Positions 4,144 through 42,876 of a stretch of DNA of 64,000 nt are shown here, piece by piece. The position numbers and the translations under genes are program-made. Source of the stretch: a virus (lineage: Duplodnaviria > Caudoviricetes); the IMG/VR virus record IMGVR_UViG_3300025889_000070; one strand, 5' to 3'. How positions within the stretch are numbered: the stretch's first letter is position 1; each line of letters opens with the position of its first letter. The notes under the pieces were generated by a model. The model saw only the letters and a list, made by a program, of their open reading frames with translations, ran no database searches and was not told the DNA's origin.

Positions 4144-4811
4144 TACATTTTTGCACACCCTGTTATGGCGGACAAATAAGTGAAGTAACTTTCCAGGGAT
4201 ATTTACGCTGGACTATTTTAGCATGTGATCCTAAGTCTAGAATTCCATTTACAGTTGATACGCTGAGTAACGAAAGTAATATCAATCGAGGCAGAAACAG
4301 TTTAGTAGCAAAGTTTTTAGCTGGGGCTGGTACGCATCTTATGTTTGTTGATGCTGACATTATGTGGTTTCCACAACAAGTTTTAAAACTATTAAGTGCG
4401 GACAAAGACGTTGTAGGTGGCATCTATCCACAAAAAACTATTCCTCCGAAAATGGTTGTAAATACAATAGACAATGGAGGCAAGGAAGGCGACTTACTTG
4501 AAGTAGGTACCATTGGCACTGGATTTCTACTAATTAAACGCACTGTTTTTGAACAAATGATTGAAATGGGTGCTAAAAAATACACTGACGATATCGGACT
4601 AGACGAATTCAACGATTATCAGTATGATTTTTTTAATTGTACAATAGATTCGGAAGGAAGATATTTAACTGAGGACTGGAGTTTTTGTAGGCGCTGGCGG
4701 CAATTAGGCGGCAAGATCTGGGCCGATACTAGTATAGAACTGGGACATGTTGGGTATCACAGATTTATGCCAGACGTACAAAGTTTAAGGAAAGAACATG
4801 GAATCAGTTGA
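4140..4811 (+). CDS. GT-A fold glycosyltransferase-like protein
   Basis: TPCYGG, ESNINRGRN, LMFVDADI (DXD), GTGFLLIKR, LTEDWSFC, LGHVG. Confidence 0.75.
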   Translation: MIHFCTPCYGGQISEVTFQGYLRWTILACDPKSRIPFTVDTLSNESNINRGRNSLVAKFLAGAGTHLMFVDADIMWFPQQVLKLLSADKDVVGGIYPQKTIPPKMVVNTIDNGGKEGDLLEVGTIGTGFLLIKRTVFEQMIEMGAKKYTDDIGLDEFNDYQYDFFNCTIDSEGRYLTEDWSFCRRWRQLGGKIWADTSIELGHVGYHRFMPDVQSLRKEHGIS

Positions 4812-32835: not shown

Positions 32836-33908
32836 ACACCATTTATATTATATGTCTGGAGCCTATTGATCAGAGATATACTAAACAGTGGTTTACAAAC
32901 ATTCCCAGTATACTGGAACAGCGTATCCAGGAACAGGGCTTAGATTATCGTGTAGTTACTATTGAAGGTGACACAGTGCCTGATAATACTACAGCAGGTG
33001 CGTTTTTGGACTTTGGTGCTACAAACGTCTACAAAGCAAGCCAGACTGTAACTGTTAGCAAGATGTTTAGTCAGGGAGACATCAAGCCTGGTGATAAGTT
33101 TTTAGTTACAGATGCCTGGAACTTTATTATTACACCTATCAAATACATGAGTGACCTGCTGGACATTCCAGTAGAAATACACAGCATCTGGCATGCTGGG
33201 GCATATGATCCCAGTGACATCCTGGGTTACAAAATGAACAAGCCATGGCCCTGGGATGCTGAGCGTAGTTGGTTTTATAGCAGTGACTATAACTACTATG
33301 CCAGTGAAAATCATCGTAAAATGTTTTTAACTAACTTAAACATACCAGAAGAATATCATCACAAAGCAGTGCGAAGTGGCCAGCCACACGAATTGATAAT
33401 CGATGATCTTGTTAGGCATCAGAATACAGACAAACAAGATCGTGTTATGTGGCCACATCGTTACAATGCTGACAAGCAACCAGCGATCGCAGAAGATCTT
33501 GCTGCCAACTTTGACATGGTTATTACTCAGAAAATGAACTTGAACAAAGCAGATTACTATGCTACAATGGGCACAAGTAAACTTATTTTTAGTTGTGCAC
33601 TACATGAGAACCTTGGCATCAGTGTCATGGAAGCAGTGCTAACTGGAGCAGTTCCAGTGGTGCCGGATCGTTGTAGTTACAGTGAAATGTATTTAGATGA
33701 ATTTAAATATCCCAGTGAGTGGACAGAGGATCTGGAAAGTTATCAGAAAAATAAACACAGGGTAGCAGAGTTTATTCAGGATAAACTGGATAACTACTCT
33801 AATTATCATAATCTTATTCGTGAGCAACAGAGTATTCTCGTACGAGATTATTTAAGCAGCAATATTATGATGGACAAATTATTAGAAAAAAAGGAACTTA
33901 GTGCATGA
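32832..33908 (+). CDS. GT-B fold glycosyltransferase (GT4-like)
   Basis: MWPHRYNADKQP..SCALHENLGISVMEAVLTGAVPVVPDRCSYSE (Ex7E motif). Confidence 0.75.
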   Translation: MNTIYIICLEPIDQRYTKQWFTNIPSILEQRIQEQGLDYRVVTIEGDTVPDNTTAGAFLDFGATNVYKASQTVTVSKMFSQGDIKPGDKFLVTDAWNFIITPIKYMSDLLDIPVEIHSIWHAGAYDPSDILGYKMNKPWPWDAERSWFYSSDYNYYASENHRKMFLTNLNIPEEYHHKAVRSGQPHELIIDDLVRHQNTDKQDRVMWPHRYNADKQPAIAEDLAANFDMVITQKMNLNKADYYATMGTSKLIFSCALHENLGISVMEAVLTGAVPVVPDRCSYSEMYLDEFKYPSEWTEDLESYQKNKHRVAEFIQDKLDNYSNYHNLIREQQSILVRDYLSSNIMMDKLLEKKELSA

Positions 33909-34594
33909 GAAATACTTCCGAACAAATTATAGAACGTATAAAACAGTCCAATGGCCGTTACTGGGCTGGAGATAATATTAGTGAATATCTAGGGCCAGGT
34001 GACAAAGAAGCACTTATTGAAGAACTTACTGTTAAGTTTGAAAGTGTACTGGATAGTTTGGTGATCGATCGTCACACTGATCCAAACAGTCAGGATACTG
34101 GCAGACGTTTGGCCAAGATGTACATTCGAGAGATAATGAGTGGTCGTTACAATCCTAAACCTAACGCAACAGCATTTCCTAATCATACAAATGAGCGATA
34201 TGATGGTATGCTAGTCGTGCGTAGTGAACTTAAAAGTATGTGTTCACACCACCATCAACCAGTCACTGGTGTAGCATACATTGGAATTATTGCTGCTGAT
34301 ACTCTCATTGGTTTAAGTAAATATACACGAATAGCACAATGGTGTGCTCGCCGTGGAACTCTACAAGAAGAACTTGCCATGGATATTGCCCGAGAAATTC
34401 AGGCAGCAACTGGCAGTAATGATGTTGGCGTATATATTCAGGCTACACATGGTTGTTGTGAAAATCGCGGCATAGGTGCTCATAGTAGCCTAACACAAAC
34501 TACAGTTTTGCGTGGCAGTTTCCACAATGATCCTGCTTGCAAGAAAGAGTTTATGGATAACATTAAACTACAACAAGGATTTGCTCCAAGATGA
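33905..34594 (+). CDS. folE: GTP cyclohydrolase I
   Basis: DTGRRLAKMY, SMCSHHHQP, GLSKYTR, LQEEL, HGCCENRG. Confidence 0.95.
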   Translation: MRNTSEQIIERIKQSNGRYWAGDNISEYLGPGDKEALIEELTVKFESVLDSLVIDRHTDPNSQDTGRRLAKMYIREIMSGRYNPKPNATAFPNHTNERYDGMLVVRSELKSMCSHHHQPVTGVAYIGIIAADTLIGLSKYTRIAQWCARRGTLQEELAMDIAREIQAATGSNDVGVYIQATHGCCENRGIGAHSSLTQTTVLRGSFHNDPACKKEFMDNIKLQQGFAPR

Positions 34595-35664: not shown

Positions 35665-38600
35665 ATGAACAAAGCATATATTGGTGCTTTGCTTGCTTCA
35701 ACTGCTCTGCTCAGTGCTTGTGTTCCTGGAAGTGGAACTCTAAGCTCTGCTGCAAGTACTGTAAAGTCTGCGTTTAACGCTAACAACGCTTTTGCTGTTA
35801 TTAGTGGGCAAATCTCAGAACTTGAAAATGTAGTTGCGGTGGCGCAAAGCAGCGCAAGCCTAAGCGCATTGGTCAATCCAACTAATGAAGACAGGACCAA
35901 TGCTGCCAACGTCGTTAGCAAGATTGATGCTGTTATCCGTGGCTGGGAAGATCATAAAGCCAACATGGATCCTAATCTACTTGCCGTTAAACTTAGTACA
36001 GCAGAATGGCGGCAAGCAGAAGCTGTTGTAAAACTACTCAAGGATGATCTCCGTCCCGTAGTTGACCGTGTAGTTCAGGGCGGCAACTATGATACCAAAG
36101 ACTTTGAATTCCTCGCAAAGAAGGAATCACTTGAACAAAAGATTAATGAAAAGAAGGCTGCCATTTTTGAAGCAGCCCAGCCCACTGTTATTAGCGCAAC
36201 TACCAGTGCAGTAACAGTAAACACTGGAGCGTCGTCCATGTCTCCTGAACGTGTCAAAAGCACTGAAGTTGTAGACGGTACACAAACGGTAACAGGTGGT
36301 AGTAGCATAAGCGATCTAACTCGTACAGCAACCTGGACCAGGACAACTACTCTGAGCATGGAGTATGATCGTACCTGGACTGTTGATGTACAGGATGTTA
36401 CTACAACTGTTTTCAGTAATGGTACTACATCTGAATCTCGTGGTACAGTTCGCAGCATTACAAACACTCAGACGTTTGATGCTCAACCACAGGTTAGCAG
36501 CCAGGAGATGACGCAAAACATTGGTTATACTGTTACAGAGCAGAATACACCAACTGTTAGTGTTACTAATGGAGAACCCACTGTTGTTGCTGAACACGTA
36601 GATAGGGTTGAACAAACAACTCAGGAAAATGGAAGTATTTTACATACTACTATTAGGACTACTACAACTACTACTACCACTCCTGTGACAACTACTACAA
36701 CTTATCCAAAAATTAGTGTCTACAACTATGAAGATGGACACTCTTTTACACACGATGCTACTGATGAAGTTTTGAGTAGCACAGTGGATGATGTTGTTGT
36801 TGCTACCAGTGAGGCTGTCGTAGAAACTATTACTGAGCATGTTGTAACAACAGAAACTACTACTAATGAAGTTGTTACACAGGTTACAGAAGGTAATCCA
36901 GTATTTGTTACTACACACGAAGATGTTACTACTACAAATACTGTAAACGGCGTAACTACTACTACAGTTACTCGTAACTATACTACAACTGCTACAGTGA
37001 CAACTACTACCACGACAAGTACTACCCCTGTAACTGTTAAAGTGTGGACAGACGGTAAACAAGAAACTATTCGTGGCGAAACTGTTGTAACAACGGAAAC
37101 CAGTGAAAGTGTAGTAACTGACCAGTGGGCAAAAGTAATGGAACAAACCACTACTGATGCTGTTGCGGAAGAAACTACAGAGTCAGCAGGAAGTGTTAAT
37201 CTTGCTGACCTAGGAACCCCAACGCCTGGAATGAGCAGCAATCCAGCAGACTTTAAGACCAATGAGTTTACCCTTGGTGCTACTGGTGGCTGGACTGACA
37301 ACAAAAGCATTATCAAGGCTGATGTTGCTTATAGTCGTGGTTGGACTGGTAAAGGTAGTTTGATTACCATTGCTGACACTGGCTATAATACCACGCACAC
37401 TGACTTAGAAGCAAAACACACTTTTAATACTATCACCGGTGATTCGACTAACATGGAAGATAATGTTGGACACGGATCACATGTTATGGGTATTGCAGCT
37501 GGCCGTAGAAACGGAACTGGTATGCATGGTGTAGCATTTGATGCTGATGTTGCTGTAGTTAAAGTAACAGATACCACAGGTTACAGTTTCGCTCGTGCTA
37601 GAACTGGCGCGACTTGGGCTGCTAACCTAGGCAGTGTTGCTTACAACGTAAGTGCTAACTATAGCTCAGACAGTGCTTTGCGTAGCAGTATTGTAGCAAC
37701 AGGTGATGGCACCTATAAGTCCACGCACTATTACTACGGTGTTAATGGCTATAATGGTGTACTACAAGAAGCCCAATTATGGAAAACCGCACTGGGTACT
37801 GAACAGATCCTAGTAAACAGTGCCGGCAACCAGACCAGCGATGTTGTATTTGGAACAGGACAAATGGCAACTGCTACAGAAAATGGTCAGCTTATCCTAG
37901 GCGGACGAATGCTGGTAGTTGGCAACTGGGACCAGAATAACAACGTTGTTCAGGGTGCAAAAGCTGGTCATCTTTGTACCACATACGATGAAGCAGCAGC
38001 AACTTGTAAAGACGCTGCTAGCATGCGGGACTTTTACATTCTTGCTCCAGGCATGAGTGTTAAGAGTGCTAACAAAGGAGATCCAAACGCTATCGTAGAC
38101 ATGAGTGGTACTAGTATGGCAGCACCACAGGTTACTGGCGCACTTGCTATTCTTAACCAAATGTGGCCACACATGAAAGGTGAAAACCTTGTCAAGTTGG
38201 TAACTACTACTGCCAGCAAGGACTTGCCTGGATACAATCCAGGTGTACACGGCAGCGGTTTGCTGGATTTGGATCGTGCTACACAGCCTGTAGGTGCTAC
38301 TGGTATCCCAACAAGTGGTCGTACCAGTGGCGCTATCGCAAGCCTGAGCACACTAAGCGGTGGTGCCCTAGTTGGCTCAATTAGCAGTGAAGCATTTGCT
38401 CCGCTTGCAAATGTTATGGTACTAGACAGCTTTGAGCGTGATTACACTATTGACCTTAGTGAAGCACAAAAGGTTGATACACGCCCAGGTAGCTATGTAG
38501 AATCTCTAGCATTTGGCAACGGCGACTACGACGCTTATGGAAACCTTGCCAGCAGTAATGCTAATCTTGCACTACCAAACATGCTAGGCTATACTGGTAA

Positions 38601-39231
38601 TATTAAAATCAACGAGAACGCAACTGGCGACTATGCATTTAGTGTTGGTTACAATCTTGTTGATGATAAGGATACCAAAGTAGATTTTGGTTTGGGCTTT
38701 GTCAAAGAAACAGGTAAGTTTCTTAACAACGTTCAGCAGGGCTTCATGGGAGTTGGTGAAAATCACACCACAAACTATGCCAGCCTAAAGATTAAACACA
38801 ACTTCAATGATACAGTGTTTGGGTTTGGTAATCTCCAGCTGGGTATGACAGATGTTGAATCCAGCAAGGATTTTAGCCTAGTTACAGGATACAGCAATCT
38901 AGTAAGTCGCAGTTTTGCTGTAGGCGCTGGGGTAAAGCCTGCTCAAGGCTGGAAACTCGGGGCTACATATAGTCAGCCACTAAATATCATGAGTGGCAAA
39001 ATGAACTACAAAGTTCCTGTAGCCAGAACCTTGGATGGTCAAGTTCAGTTTAATGAAGGAAGTGCTGATGCAAGCACAAAAGTTATTGAACATGACCTGG
39101 GTCTTTTTGTACAATATAAGATGGATGAAAACTTTAGCTTTGCTGGCTATGGTGAACACAGAATAAACGTTGCCGGTACAAAAGGAAACAGCCAGACTAA
39201 CGTAGGTGTAAAATTTAACTGGCAGTTCTAA
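35665..39231 (+). CDS. lipoprotein S8 subtilisin-like serine protease autotransporter with Thr-rich stalk
   Basis: Lipobox LSAC (Cys19); triad IADTG / GHGSHVMG / GTSMAAP; C-terminal amphipathic beta-strands ending VKFNWQF. Confidence 0.85.
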   Translation: MNKAYIGALLASTALLSACVPGSGTLSSAASTVKSAFNANNAFAVISGQISELENVVAVAQSSASLSALVNPTNEDRTNAANVVSKIDAVIRGWEDHKANMDPNLLAVKLSTAEWRQAEAVVKLLKDDLRPVVDRVVQGGNYDTKDFEFLAKKESLEQKINEKKAAIFEAAQPTVISATTSAVTVNTGASSMSPERVKSTEVVDGTQTVTGGSSISDLTRTATWTRTTTLSMEYDRTWTVDVQDVTTTVFSNGTTSESRGTVRSITNTQTFDAQPQVSSQEMTQNIGYTVTEQNTPTVSVTNGEPTVVAEHVDRVEQTTQENGSILHTTIRTTTTTTTTPVTTTTTYPKISVYNYEDGHSFTHDATDEVLSSTVDDVVVATSEAVVETITEHVVTTETTTNEVVTQVTEGNPVFVTTHEDVTTTNTVNGVTTTTVTRNYTTTATVTTTTTTSTTPVTVKVWTDGKQETIRGETVVTTETSESVVTDQWAKVMEQTTTDAVAEETTESAGSVNLADLGTPTPGMSSNPADFKTNEFTLGATGGWTDNKSIIKADVAYSRGWTGKGSLITIADTGYNTTHTDLEAKHTFNTITGDSTNMEDNVGHGSHVMGIAAGRRNGTGMHGVAFDADVAVVKVTDTTGYSFARARTGATWAANLGSVAYNVSANYSSDSALRSSIVATGDGTYKSTHYYYGVNGYNGVLQEAQLWKTALGTEQILVNSAGNQTSDVVFGTGQMATATENGQLILGGRMLVVGNWDQNNNVVQGAKAGHLCTTYDEAAATCKDAASMRDFYILAPGMSVKSANKGDPNAIVDMSGTSMAAPQVTGALAILNQMWPHMKGENLVKLVTTTASKDLPGYNPGVHGSGLLDLDRATQPVGATGIPTSGRTSGAIASLSTLSGGALVGSISSEAFAPLANVMVLDSFERDYTIDLSEAQKVDTRPGSYVESLAFGNGDYDAYGNLASSNANLALPNMLGYTGNIKINENATGDYAFSVGYNLVDDKDTKVDFGLGFVKETGKFLNNVQQGFMGVGENHTTNYASLKIKHNFNDTVFGFGNLQLGMTDVESSKDFSLVTGYSNLVSRSFAVGAGVKPAQGWKLGATYSQPLNIMSGKMNYKVPVARTLDGQVQFNEGSADASTKVIEHDLGLFVQYKMDENFSFAGYGEHRINVAGTKGNSQTNVGVKFNWQF

Positions 39232-39241
39232 GGAGGAAGAA

Positions 39242-39724
39242 ATGCAACTAGTGCAGATCACATTAGAAAACTATAAGAAACTTAAATTTAATATCGATGA
39301 TGATCCAGTACGGCCTGAGCTAACTTTAGACTTTAGACTAGCACCAGGGCGTGAGATTTGGGCACTAGTTGCAGATGACGAATACAAGGCGGCGGTCTGT
39401 GTGGCATACTGCAACGAAGTACCTATTACTGTAAAAGAACTTGATTATTACAGTCAAGCAGCGCATCAAGACGATCAACATGGTAATATTGCAATCGCAT
39501 ACACAGTTTGGACCAAGCAACCTGGTGCTGGAAGAAAACTAATATTGGACATGATAAAACTATTAGAACAACAACGTGTCCTGCGCCTAGTAACTCTAAG
39601 TCCAAAAACAGCAATGGCGAGAAAATTCCATTTAAGAAATGGCGCCTTTATTTTTCAATTAAATACTGAGACAGACAACTATGAATATAAACTTTATCAA
39701 GAACAGGAAACGAGTAATACTTGA
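39242..39724 (+). CDS. hypothetical protein, possible GNAT-like fold
   Basis: YTVW..QPGAGRKLI..LVTLSPKTAMARKFHLRNGA. Confidence 0.45.
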   Translation: MQLVQITLENYKKLKFNIDDDPVRPELTLDFRLAPGREIWALVADDEYKAAVCVAYCNEVPITVKELDYYSQAAHQDDQHGNIAIAYTVWTKQPGAGRKLILDMIKLLEQQRVLRLVTLSPKTAMARKFHLRNGAFIFQLNTETDNYEYKLYQEQETSNT

Positions 39725-40124
39725 CAGACTGGGAAACAACCCTTATCTTGTTAGATACTACTTGTTCCTTAAAGATAGAAAATGGTTTCCATTCAATATT
39801 TTCCTACACAAGTTTCTAAGCAGTGACCCAGATGAACTACATGACCATCCCTGGCCCTACTTTACACTTATACTACGCGGCGGATACTGGGAAACAACAC
39901 CAAATGGCAGATTTTGGAGACAGCCTGGGCATTTTAGGTTTTGTAAACCAAAAGATTTACATCGCATTGAACTAGAGCCTGATATTACCGCCTGGACTCT
40001 TTTTATTCCTGGCCCAAAACTTAGAGAATGGGGTTTTATAGTAAACGGAAAGTGGATGCATAACGAGCAATATTTTGCTTGGAGAAAACAAAAGGTAAAA
40101 AATGAAAAAGTTGTATCTTTCTAA
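39681..40124 (+). CDS. cupin-fold protein
   Basis: LHDHPWPYFTLILRGGYWE..LHRIEL..WTLFIPGP. Confidence 0.7.
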   Translation: MNINFIKNRKRVILDRLGNNPYLVRYYLFLKDRKWFPFNIFLHKFLSSDPDELHDHPWPYFTLILRGGYWETTPNGRFWRQPGHFRFCKPKDLHRIELEPDITAWTLFIPGPKLREWGFIVNGKWMHNEQYFAWRKQKVKNEKVVSF

Positions 40125-40635
40125 TAAACAGATTAAAAAAAGCATACACGATATTGTTTCACAAATGTATGCTGATAACTGGCGACCTGACTACATTGTA
40201 GGTATTACTCGTGGCGGTCTTGTCCCCGCTGTTCTTATGAGCCATCTAACAGGTATTAAGATGCATACCCTTGATGTTAGATTACGTGATGCCGCTGGCG
40301 AAAATGAATCCAACTACTGGATGGCAGAGGATGCTTTTGGCAACCATAGAACTGATGATCTACCAAGTTATAGCAATCCGCATCTTAGGAAAAATATTTT
40401 AATCTTGGATGATATCAATGATAGCGGAGCAACTCTTGAATGGATCAAAAACGATTGGCCCAGCGGATGCTTGCCAAATGATCCTGCTTGGAATGATGTT
40501 TGGCACAATAATGTTCGTTTCGCGACCATTGTAAATAATCTATCAAGTCCCTTTGAAGTTGATTATTCCTGTATCGAAATAAACAAAGCGGAAGAAGATG
40601 TTTGGGTAGTTTTTCCCTATGAGGAATGGTGGTAA
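40102..40635 (+). CDS. type I phosphoribosyltransferase (xanthine/guanine PRT-like)
   Basis: VGITRGGLVPA, PRPP loop ILILDDINDSGATL, WVVFPYE. Confidence 0.85.
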   Translation: MKKLYLSNKQIKKSIHDIVSQMYADNWRPDYIVGITRGGLVPAVLMSHLTGIKMHTLDVRLRDAAGENESNYWMAEDAFGNHRTDDLPSYSNPHLRKNILILDDINDSGATLEWIKNDWPSGCLPNDPAWNDVWHNNVRFATIVNNLSSPFEVDYSCIEINKAEEDVWVVFPYEEWW

Positions 40636-41204
40636 TGCTGTTTACAGAATACAAAAATTGGATATCTGATAAGGAACACATTGATATTTTAAGTAAAATT
40701 GTATACGCACCAAAGTGGCGTTTTGGCCAAGTAAGTGATGATCAAATTGAACCAAACTATCCAATGTGGTTCCAGGGATTTTATCACGTGCACAAACATG
40801 AATTTAAGGACGATTGTCCTGATATTGCTAAAACTTTAACGGAACGGTTTTTGGACCTAGCACCCGACAACTATATGTTGGTTAGAAGCATGGCTAGTAG
40901 TAATACGTTTGGTCAGGACGGAGACTTTCACACAGATTGGCCAGTATTTGGGCAAAGCATTACTGGTGTACTTTATACTGATAAAGTATGGGAAACAAAC
41001 TGGGGCGGTGAAACCTTGTTTAAAGGAGATCAGGTTTTAGAAGCAAGTGAGTATGAGCCTTGTAAACTTGTTACTTTTGATAGTAGCATTCCGCACATTG
41101 GTAAAGGTCCCCAACGTAGGTGCAAGGAAATGCGTAGCATACTAGCATTCCAAGCAGTGGAAGCCGATGCTCTCAGAGAAAGAATGAATAAAAAACTTGA
41201 CTAA
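40635..41204 (+). CDS. 2OG-Fe(II) oxygenase
   Basis: FHTD (HxD), WGGETLF, VTFDSSIPHIG, R.ILAF. Confidence 0.8.
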   Translation: MLFTEYKNWISDKEHIDILSKIVYAPKWRFGQVSDDQIEPNYPMWFQGFYHVHKHEFKDDCPDIAKTLTERFLDLAPDNYMLVRSMASSNTFGQDGDFHTDWPVFGQSITGVLYTDKVWETNWGGETLFKGDQVLEASEYEPCKLVTFDSSIPHIGKGPQRRCKEMRSILAFQAVEADALRERMNKKLD

Positions 41205-41225
41205 ATAGAAAGTACTTGTTATTAT
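41197..41225 (+). promoter_or_regulatory. sigma70-type promoter TTGACT-N17-TATTAT
   Basis: Upstream of the queD leader. Confidence 0.7.
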
Positions 41226-41231
41226 AATAAT

Positions 41232-41297
41232 AAGAGGACTTAGTGTTCGTTCCCTCTTTAAATATTCCGCGCACTCCATAACCAAGGAGTATAAATT
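41232..41297 (+). promoter_or_regulatory. structured 5' leader of queD (candidate riboswitch-like element)
   Basis: Stem AAGAGG/CCTCTT; loop AGTG complementary to downstream CACT; ACTCC/GGAGT hairpin covers the SD. Confidence 0.45.
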
Positions 41298-41777
41298 ATG
41301 GCAAAATATATTAGTACTAAAACATATAGACACTTAGGTCCAGTAGCATACAGGCAGTGGAGAGCAGACAGTCATTGTAATTTAATTCATGGATACGCAT
41401 TAAGTTTCCATTTTGAATTTGAATGCGACACACTGGATGCTAGAAACTGGTGCATGGACTTTGGTGGTTTGAAGCCACTAAAACAAAACCTAGAAGATTG
41501 GTTTGATCATACGCTATTAGTAGCACAAGACGATCCAGACCGAGAAACATTGTTAGATCTTGGTAAAAAAGGATTAGCAAAGATCACAGAAGTTGAAAAA
41601 ACTGGCTGCGAGGGTCTAGCAGACTTCCTTTATGAATACGTAAATACTATTTTCTTACCCAACTATGGCAAAGCAGAAGCAGAACGTATCTGGTGCTGTA
41701 AAGTTGAGGTAAGGGAAACCGACTCAAATATGGCTATGCGTGTCGGGCATAGAGAAGATGGAGAATTCGATGTTTAA
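41298..41777 (+). CDS. queD: 6-carboxy-5,6,7,8-tetrahydropterin synthase
   Basis: HCNLIHGY, MDFGGLKPLK, FDHTLL, EGLA, VRET.SN.A. Confidence 0.9.
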   Translation: MAKYISTKTYRHLGPVAYRQWRADSHCNLIHGYALSFHFEFECDTLDARNWCMDFGGLKPLKQNLEDWFDHTLLVAQDDPDRETLLDLGKKGLAKITEVEKTGCEGLADFLYEYVNTIFLPNYGKAEAERIWCCKVEVRETDSNMAMRVGHREDGEFDV

Positions 41778-41985
41778 AACTTTTTGGAACTTTATTTCTG
41801 GTTTAGGCAGTGTTGAAGACATTGTAAAGACAGCTACAGTAACAGAAGCAGAACTTAAAAAGATGACCAAAAAAGAAATTGATGACTGGGCTGCTAGTTC
41901 AGGCGTTACACTTGATCGTCGTCTTACAAAAGATAAGATGATTGCTGAACTTAAAACACACACATCTAAAGTTAACATTACATAA
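41770..41985 (+). CDS. small hypothetical protein (possible Rho-N/SAP-like helical C-terminus)
   Basis: LKKMTKKEIDDWA..LDRRLTKDKMIAEL; GGAG SD. Confidence 0.5.
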   Translation: MFKTFWNFISGLGSVEDIVKTATVTEAELKKMTKKEIDDWAASSGVTLDRRLTKDKMIAELKTHTSKVNIT

Positions 41986-41994
41986 GAGGCATTA

Positions 41995-42876
41995 ATGAAA
42001 ATAAGATACACTGAAGCGTTTTATAGTGTACAAGGCGAAGGAAGGTTTGTTGGAGTTCCCAGCGTTTTCTTGCGTATGTACGGTTGTAATTTTACATGTC
42101 CAAAGTTTGGGCTAGCAAGGGATGCAGATACAAGTCAGACTGATAAAAAGTTAGCGGACATTGTTTACGAAACAACCAAGGTGTTTCCTGAAAAATATGA
42201 TAGTGTAGATAAACTCCCACTTATTGAAACAGGCTGTGACAGTTATGCCGCTTGGCATCCTGCTTTTAAACATCTACAGAATGACGTAGACTTGGACACA
42301 CTTGTAGATAGACTGCTAGCACTAACACCCACTGGATCATGGACACAGGAAAATGGTCAAGACATACACTTGGTTATCACAGGTGGTGAACCTTTGTTGG
42401 GTTGGCAGCGTGTGTATACAGAACTATTTGAACATCCAAAAATGAAGGATCTTAAAAATGTCACTTTTGAAACTAACACCACACAGCCTTTGCAGGACAA
42501 TTTCCAGTCTTACCTCAACAATAACCAACAACTACATGTTACATGGTCATGTTCCCCGAAGCTATCGGTTAGTGGACATGCTTGGGATGATGCTATACAG
42601 CCTAGTATTGCTAGGAGTTACAGTGACATTCGTGATAGCTACCTATATTTCAAGTTTGTTGTATGTGATGATGTTGATGTGGAAGAAGTTGACCGAGCTG
42701 TGGCGGAATTTAGAGCTGCCGGTATTACTGCGCCGGTTTATGTCATGGCTGTCGGAGGTACAACAACAAGTTACTTTGCTAACGGCAAAACTGTGGCGGA
42801 ACTTGCTCTTAAAAAAGGCTATTGTTATTCGCCCAGGCTTCATGTCGACGTTTTTGGCAATGCCTGGGGAACGTAA
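41995..42876 (+). CDS. queE: 7-carboxy-7-deazaguanine synthase (radical SAM)
   Basis: FYSVQGEGRFVGVPSVFLRMYGCNFTC..GCDS, VITGGEPLL, FETN, SPKL, SPRLH. Confidence 0.93.
   Translation: MKIRYTEAFYSVQGEGRFVGVPSVFLRMYGCNFTCPKFGLARDADTSQTDKKLADIVYETTKVFPEKYDSVDKLPLIETGCDSYAAWHPAFKHLQNDVDLDTLVDRLLALTPTGSWTQENGQDIHLVITGGEPLLGWQRVYTELFEHPKMKDLKNVTFETNTTQPLQDNFQSYLNNNQQLHVTWSCSPKLSVSGHAWDDAIQPSIARSYSDIRDSYLYFKFVVCDDVDVEEVDRAVAEFRAAGITAPVYVMAVGGTTTSYFANGKTVAELALKKGYCYSPRLHVDVFGNAWGT

Follow-up and report, generated by a model that had tools for sequence, protein, structure and literature searches.

A candidate phage riboswitch with preQ1-I-like architecture and predicted ON control of queD

The 64,000-nucleotide stretch of Caudoviricetes DNA analysed here (IMG/VR virus record IMGVR_UViG_3300025889_000070), hereafter the window, has a gap of 93 nt between an open reading frame (ORF) that ends at position 41204 and the ATG of a queD gene at 41298. 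On comparison with related phage loci, the leader in this gap appears to carry a phage-specific riboswitch candidate, built like the class I preQ1 (preQ1-I) riboswitches and predicted to exert ON control of queD translation, and we put the probability of this reading at about 0.6. What was found is what is looked for in a riboswitch candidate: covarying stems with invariant junction and loop bases, varied expression platforms that compete with the aptamer, and an association in cis with the genes of a single pathway. Riboswitches have rarely been reported in phages, and those reported copy bacterial classes, such as the glutamine riboswitch (PMC9004378). A literature search on phage, queD and riboswitch returned no description of the element and no paper in which DpdA and a riboswitch occur together; its coverage was incomplete and it is no proof of novelty.

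In the mechanism we propose, the element would be a conserved RNA that regulates in cis from the very 5′ end of an early, sigma-70-driven queD(-queE) transcript. A small molecule would bind at the junction of the two stems P1 and P2 and stabilise the pseudoknot that they form, and the stabilised pseudoknot would draw a switching strand off the ribosome-binding site (RBS), turning queD translation ON. Without ligand the anti-RBS hairpin would win and translation would be low. The 3′ strand of P2 would have a second pairing partner, the Shine-Dalgarno (SD) sequence in this phage and the start codon in most of its relatives.

The leader element is predicted to be an H-type pseudoknot, with two stems (P1 and P2) and three loops (L1 to L3). 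Its parts in the window are as follows.

~41233-41275, plus strand: putative aptamer, an H-type pseudoknot with a P1 of 5 bp and a P2 of 7 pairs plus a conserved U/C mismatch.
41233-41237, plus strand: P1 5′ strand AGAGG, pairing with 41253-57; A41232-U41258 is a sixth pair in this window.
41238-41241, plus strand: L1, ACU and a variable spacer; the C and U are nearly invariant, and the spacer is 1 nt here and 0-12 nt elsewhere.
41242-41249, plus strand: P2 5′ strand AGUGUUCG; five variable pairs, then the invariant unpaired U41247 (opposite C41270), the invariant C41248 and the covarying G41249.
41250-41252, plus strand: L2, UUC, whose last base, the invariant C41252, abuts the P1 3′ strand on its 5′ side; 2-3 nt in the family.
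41253-41257, plus strand: P1 3′ strand CCUCU, pairing with 41233-37.
41258-41267, plus strand: L3, UUAAAUAUUC, 10 nt and A-rich, with three invariant A and an invariant UC.
41268-41275, plus strand: P2 3′ strand CGCGCACU; its last three bases, ACU (41273-75), also begin the anti-SD strand and are the candidate switching sequence.
41273-41290, plus strand: anti-SD hairpin ACUCC (41273-77)/GGAGU (41286-90), which would bury the SD when P2 is unformed; its minimum free energy (MFE) fold is at -6.3 kcal/mol.

Several of these parts had been proposed in a preliminary description of this DNA. The P1 stem AAGAGG (41232-37)/CCTCTT (41253-58), the pseudoknot pairing of AGTG (41242-45) with CACT (41272-75) and the anti-SD hairpin ACTCC (41273-77)/GGAGT (41286-90) are all present where they had been placed, and the pseudoknot pairing is supported by covariation in P2. 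The length of 4 bp given there for P2 needs correction: the AGTG/CACT part stands, but the full helix, AGUGUUCG at 41242-49 with CGCGCACU at 41268-75, consists of seven pairs flanking the U47/C70 mismatch (U41247 and C41270).

Relatives of the locus were sought in IMG/VR in two ways. A scan anchored on QueD confirmed 409 relatives and gave 80 loci, while scans with three motif patterns, the third leaving three P1 3′-strand positions free, gave at least 120 matches each. The same element is found within the 130 nt 5′ of queD in most of the 80 QueD-anchored loci, and in the remaining ones queD follows directly behind another gene with no leader. Among the IMG/VR matches listed, 225 of the 232 instances with a downstream ORF have the element directly 5′ of QueD; in five of the other seven a small or inserted ORF separates queD from the motif, and the remaining two resemble chance matches. 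The inserted ORFs are of 293 aa (at two loci, nearly identical and possibly a mobile gene), 243 aa, 113 aa and 58 aa, and at these loci (L292:4831, L300 on the minus strand at 4364, L259, L248 and L035) the RNA would control the inserted gene first.

A covariance model of the element (R1), run with its filters off, finds a single match in the window, at 41231-41277 (40.1 bits, E 6e-12), the runner-up scoring 7.6 bits. R1 matches each of 100 loci exactly once, does the same in 95 of another 96 viral loci, and finds a single copy apiece in two complete phage genomes (190 kb and 400 kb). Neither these two whole genomes nor the window showed a further copy, whether before folE, dpdA or any other gene.

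Covariation was measured on a model-based alignment of 100 distinct leaders; P2 lies outside R1, so the alignment of P2 was not fitted to P2 itself. Across P1 and the extended P2, 93.7% of the cells are paired compared with 73.0% in shuffles, and the covariation score of 0.551 compares with 0.161 in shuffles, none of 500 of which reached the observed value. Sliding the partners by 1-3 columns gives scores of only 0.04-0.16. A lack of covariation in homologous leaders had been named beforehand as the outcome that would count against a regulatory RNA; the opposite was found, with both P1 and P2 covarying strongly and far above the shuffled and slid controls. Chance as the origin of the element is excluded by this covariation.

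All five variable pairs of P2 show compensatory changes, with up to six pair types; one of them is CG in 36 leaders, AU in 23, GC in 15, GU in 15 and UA in 8. Towards the junction the helix continues with an invariant U opposite an invariant C, an invariant C-G pair and then a purine-pyrimidine pair. This junction pair, R25-Y45, is A-U in 68 and G-C in 32 of the 100 leaders with no exceptions, and A-U in 30 and G-C in 10 of the 40 unique aptamers of the QueD-anchored set. P1 has the consensus AGNGG/CCNCU, its middle pair being A-U, C-G or U-A among homologues and always paired. The pattern that leaves P1 free found a third P1 type, AGUGG/CCACU, and in that set the middle pair is U-A in 42 cases and A-U in 28, again all paired. 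The L3 base at A41261 tracks this middle pair in the QueD-anchored set, being A in all 25 cases with A-U and C or U in all 15 with C-G, which suggests a base triple between L3 and P1, although shared ancestry could contribute to the pattern.

Outside the helices about 16 unpaired or junction positions are invariant, as would be expected of a binding pocket with its tertiary contacts. Column 28 of the alignment, the position of C41252, is C in 100 of 100 leaders, and the base before it is U in 49, A in 35 and C in 16.

The expression platforms, from the P2 3′ strand through 15 nt beyond the start codon, were folded by MFE for 70 unique sequences. In 52 of these the P2 3′ strand is paired with the start-codon region and in 18 with the SD; it is never free. 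At least four designs achieve this: ACUCC/GGAGU in the window, UGUCAUC/GAUGGCA, in which inner helices cover the SD too, CCUAUG/CAUAGG, and UGUCAUUG/CAAUGGCA. Since the P2 3′ strand is the anti-SD or anti-start strand in all 70 platforms, formation of the pseudoknot would free the RBS, giving an ON logic. The preliminary description had argued that P2 and the anti-SD hairpin are mutually exclusive and that the logic is ON rather than OFF, and the strand shared in 70 of 70 platforms upholds both points. To judge from the platforms, a set of bases constrained at once by the P2 5′ strand and by the start-codon region bears the mark of a switching sequence. By a rough estimate the median energy is -4.1 kcal/mol for the P2 duplex (-5.5 in the window) and -10.2 kcal/mol for the anti-RBS fold (-6.3 in the window). 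P2 is thus the weaker of the two, so extra stabilisation of the pseudoknot would be needed to open the RBS, and on this model whatever stabilises the pseudoknot would turn translation ON.

The resemblance to preQ1-I riboswitches had been noticed at the outset together with a departure from their consensus, and both hold. No match to Rfam 15 was found at gathering score in the whole window. At E <= 10 a search of positions 41100-41400 and of 16 related loci with Rfam 15, including preQ1-I, -II and -III, gave nothing relevant, only noise (SNORD97, 16.5 bits), and at E <= 0.001 the preQ1-I model RF00522 (gathering score 39 bits) had no match in four motif-bearing genomes, while the Bacillus subtilis control was detected.

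Class I preQ1 riboswitches are H-type pseudoknots with UC or AC before the P1 3′ strand, the C of which pairs with the ligand; the base before this specificity cytosine is U in type I and A in types II and III (PMC11625349). Their A-rich L3 lies in the P1 minor groove, and their P2 is short (four steps in the aptamer of T. tengcongensis) and buries SD bases (PMC11625349). The same review describes them only as gene-off switches, acting by occlusion of the SD sequence or by termination (PMC11625349). The phage element likewise is a small H-type pseudoknot with a G/C-topped P1 of 5 bp and a P2 formed between the P1 loop and the 3′ tail, it has a cytosine (C41252) in the same position directly 5′ of the P1 3′ strand, its L3 is A-rich, and it lies upstream of a gene of the 7-deazaguanine pathway. 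Its L3 probably lies in the P1 minor groove.

All of these likenesses would be explained by a diverged but true preQ1-I riboswitch binding preQ1 or preQ0, as would a P1 that is often AGAGG/CCUCU and an invariant C that mostly follows U or A. We consider this distinctly unlikely. RF00522 is blind to the element, whether at gathering score, at E <= 10 on 301 nt of the window and the 16 loci, or at E <= 0.001 on the four genomes. The phage P2 has 7 pairs and a conserved U/C mismatch in place of 3-4 pairs, L3 is 10 nt long and ends in an invariant UC where preQ1-I has about 6-7 nt, L2 is shorter at 2-3 nt, and L1 reads (A/U)CU instead of UU or UC. The SD (41286-90) lies outside the aptamer and the P2 3′ strand serves as the anti-RBS strand, giving ON logic as opposed to gene-off. 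No queC was found near the motif in any motif locus within the flanks examined, so these phages may not make preQ0 or preQ1, and the element occurs almost only in uncultured phages. On these comparisons the element seems built like preQ1-I and is not filed as a member of RF00522.

Other compact regulatory RNAs offer partial parallels. The guanidine-III (ykkC-III) and SAM-II/SAM-V riboswitches control translation initiation through a compact H-type pseudoknot that contains loop-helix triples, and guanidine-III is an ON switch. The phage element differs from them in having no sequence or model match in Rfam 15, and in its conserved bases, its genes and presumably its ligand. The THF-II riboswitch (the folE motif) is a bacterial OFF switch with a hairpin architecture that recognises the guanine-like face of pterins. 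Like the phage element it is small and precedes a gene of the GTP-to-pterin branch; it is, however, a hairpin and not a pseudoknot, belongs to bacteria rather than phages and turns its gene OFF, and no THF-II match was found here with Rfam.

Beyond IMG/VR the element is scarce. Searching the locus and three leader types by blastn against 50,697 GenBank phage records found no instance of the motif in these cultured phages. The closest cultured QueD is that of Acidovorax phage ACP17, at 69.5% identity, and the stretches around queD in ACP17 and in Xanthomonas phage BUDD gave no R1 match better than E 5.7 (<=5.4 bits). In 596 Gb of reference genomes from bacteria and archaea there were 58 pattern matches, compared with about 52 expected by chance on our own estimate. 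By the model only five of the 58 are genuine, each upstream of a diverged QueD gene on a contig from a metagenome-assembled genome (MAG), the bins being Rickettsiales (two contigs), Chitinophagales, Haliscomenobacter and Nitrospira. These copies are probably phage DNA in bacterial bins. The two Rickettsiales contigs (L337 and L358), from one marine MAG (MED657), carry near-identical copies of promoter, motif and queD, a duplicate that looks like phage DNA or two strain variants binned in a bacterial genome. Preceding diverged QueD genes on contigs binned with very different bacteria, the element appears to be independent both of the QueD sequence and of the host.

This distribution bears on a second alternative, already raised in the preliminary description, in which the pseudoknot would be a translational operator recognised by a phage or host protein that shifts its balance with the anti-RBS hairpin. 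The model for this is the leader of T4 gene 32, where an H-type pseudoknot heads the mRNA and acts as an autogenous translational operator for gp32. Like that leader, the queD element is an H-type pseudoknot that would govern translation from the 5′ end of a phage mRNA. The gene 32 leader differs in nucleating the binding of its own product, a single-stranded-DNA-binding protein, whereas the gene behind the queD element encodes a small metabolic enzyme, and the element's switching strand would compete directly for the RBS. Conserved loops and covarying stems would suit a protein site as well as an aptamer, and no ligand is known for the element. Judged by their DNA polymerase the carriers are T4-related large phages, a group known for translational operators; the polymerase in the window is T4-type, with those of jumbo phages nearest (49% identity). 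The element is nevertheless single-copy and tied to one metabolic gene. RegA, for comparison, acts on many mRNAs, while gp32 and gp43 regulate their own. Because the RNA is kept across very diverged QueD genes and on contigs assigned to unrelated bacteria, a protein partner would have to be equally widespread, and the small H-type fold with its invariant junction C and A-rich L3 reproduces the architecture of known metabolite aptamers. We therefore regard a protein operator as unlikely, and continue to favour a metabolite-binding riboswitch.

The promoter and the pathway genes of the locus are listed below.

41197-41225, plus strand: sigma-70-type (early) promoter, -35 TTGACT at 41197-41202, 17-nt spacer, -10 TATTAT at 41220-41225.
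41298-41777, plus strand: queD-like gene (6-carboxytetrahydropterin/PTPS family), the presumed regulated gene; Pfam PF01242 E 6.6e-16, PHROG QueD-like E 1.9e-40.
41995-42876, plus strand: queE-like radical-SAM gene; PHROG 2076 QueE-like E 1e-50.
33905-34594: folE, in the same window.

The promoter TTGACT-N17-TATTAT had also been picked out in the preliminary description and is present as given there. It agrees with the consensus at 10 of 12 positions and has the TG of an extended -10 at 41217-18, which would place the transcript start at about 41231-41233, at the base of P1. In the region as a whole, the number of promoter-like sites hardly exceeds expectation (30 observed, 22.8 expected). Upstream of the motif, 41 of 108 unique regions carry a sigma-70 promoter with at least 10 of 12 positions, and 18 have all 12, compared with 0 of 108 in shuffles; the distance from the end of the -10 element to P1 is mostly 5-16 nt in these regions. 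At the other loci the aptamer lies directly 3′ of an upstream gene. Because there are many such loci, the aptamer is often, and not always, the 5′ end of the mRNA. The queE-like gene is probably on the queD transcript, and in 32 related loci the QueE homologue starts 500-750 nt past the motif.

A position at the very start of the transcript, as seen in many phages, would also suit an element that needs no ligand: a 5′ stabiliser protecting the message from RNases, a translational enhancer, a thermosensor or a folding timer. Kinetics or temperature alone would then decide whether the pseudoknot forms. In keeping with such an element, P2 is made before the RBS during transcription, and in the window the two alternative folds are similar in energy. 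Yet many instances are promoterless and directly behind an upstream gene, so protection of the 5′ end cannot be the general role. Nor would a stabiliser need some 16 invariant unpaired bases, or a switching strand re-invented in four platform designs. Ligand-independent action is, in our view, highly unlikely.

No intrinsic terminator was called in the queD leader. Two further roles for the leader were considered and dropped. A leader peptide is ruled out, the gap having no ATG and its sole GTG frame falling in the variable P2 strand, and a role in promoting frameshifting or readthrough in the upstream gene is rejected on account of the promoters that intervene in many loci.

If the element is a riboswitch, the stabiliser of the pseudoknot would be a metabolite rather than a protein. 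By analogy with preQ1-I, the invariant junction C suggests that a guanine-like Watson-Crick face is read. Such a face is presented alike by guanine, the 7-deazaguanines and the pterins, the candidate classes that the preliminary description had put forward. ON switches usually sense a substrate or a signal, and a feed-forward ON logic would be fitted best by 7,8-dihydroneopterin triphosphate, the substrate of QueD and a product of the phage's own FolE, or by a guanine nucleotide or base. End products such as preQ0, preQ1 and 7-carboxy-7-deazaguanine (CDG) are possible ligands that would fit the ON logic less naturally. A broader proposal, to which we give a little less than an even chance, is that the element represents a new and essentially phage-only riboswitch class, which would sense a guanine-faced intermediate of the route from GTP through pterins to 7-deazaguanines and switch ON the enzymes that make modified DNA bases. 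Within such a class the sensed compound would most plausibly be either the QueD substrate named above or a guanine compound set free in the course of infection.

Several points weigh against the riboswitch proposal. The comparative evidence seems compatible with a metabolite and a protein effector alike, and a biosynthetic gene turned ON by a product of its pathway would be an uncommon arrangement, which makes the ligand hard to name. The window leader folded alone has an energy of -12.4 kcal/mol compared with a shuffle mean of -10.5 (z = -0.77), a single-sequence stability no better than chance; since single-sequence folding gives no signal, the case for the element rests on comparison with other phages. 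In that comparison many of the aligned leaders are kin, which inflates the cell counts and leaves the number of distinct pair types unaffected. Two of the search patterns fixed parts of P1 and L3, and the claims made about these rest on the QueD-anchored and P1-free sets. The energies given for P2 and the anti-RBS fold are rough because the pseudoknot loop and tertiary terms were left out. Finally, with 7 pairs and with transcription ahead of the RBS, P2 might form the pseudoknot without any ligand, in which case the element would be constitutively open.

The QueD enzymes encoded behind the motif have features of their own. The canonical QueD has the motif C-x3-H-G-H, and the clade behind the RNA has C-x3-H-G-Y (CNLIHGY, residues 27-33 of the 41298-41777 product), the HGY also being kept in the diverged QueD copies of the MAG contigs. 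A phmmer search of the window's QueD against all PDB chains found no relative at E <= 1e-3, despite the clear Pfam and PHROG matches. To judge from its sequence, the motif-linked enzyme may not be a standard 6-carboxytetrahydropterin (CPH4) synthase.

Between queD and queE lies a gap of 217 nt (41778-41994), where the sole ORF is an overlapping, GTG-started one of 81 aa (41740-41985). Directly 5′ of the leader, at 39681-41204, are three overlapping genes, for a cupin (PHROG 'cysteine dioxygenase'), a phosphoribosyltransferase and a 192-aa PHROG 274 protein ('DNA endonuclease V'), and homologues of all three recur near the motif in about one third of the loci with long flanks. An ORF of 1188 aa at 35665-39231 lies just 5′ of the deazaguanine gene block.

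In the synthesis of 7-deazaguanines queD stands at the first committed step, and phages use this pathway to modify their DNA against restriction. The element before this gene is common among uncultured phages of aquatic origin, is missing from Rfam and turned up on only 5 MAG contigs in 596 Gb of bacterial references. An aptamer of about 45 nt with a build like that of preQ1-I and the opposite wiring may bind a different ligand. If our reading is correct, the element would show how a phage times or doses the hypermodification of its DNA, and on the broader proposal of a phage-only class it would be the first ON switch in the 7-deazaguanine pathway and the first riboswitch controlling DNA hypermodification.

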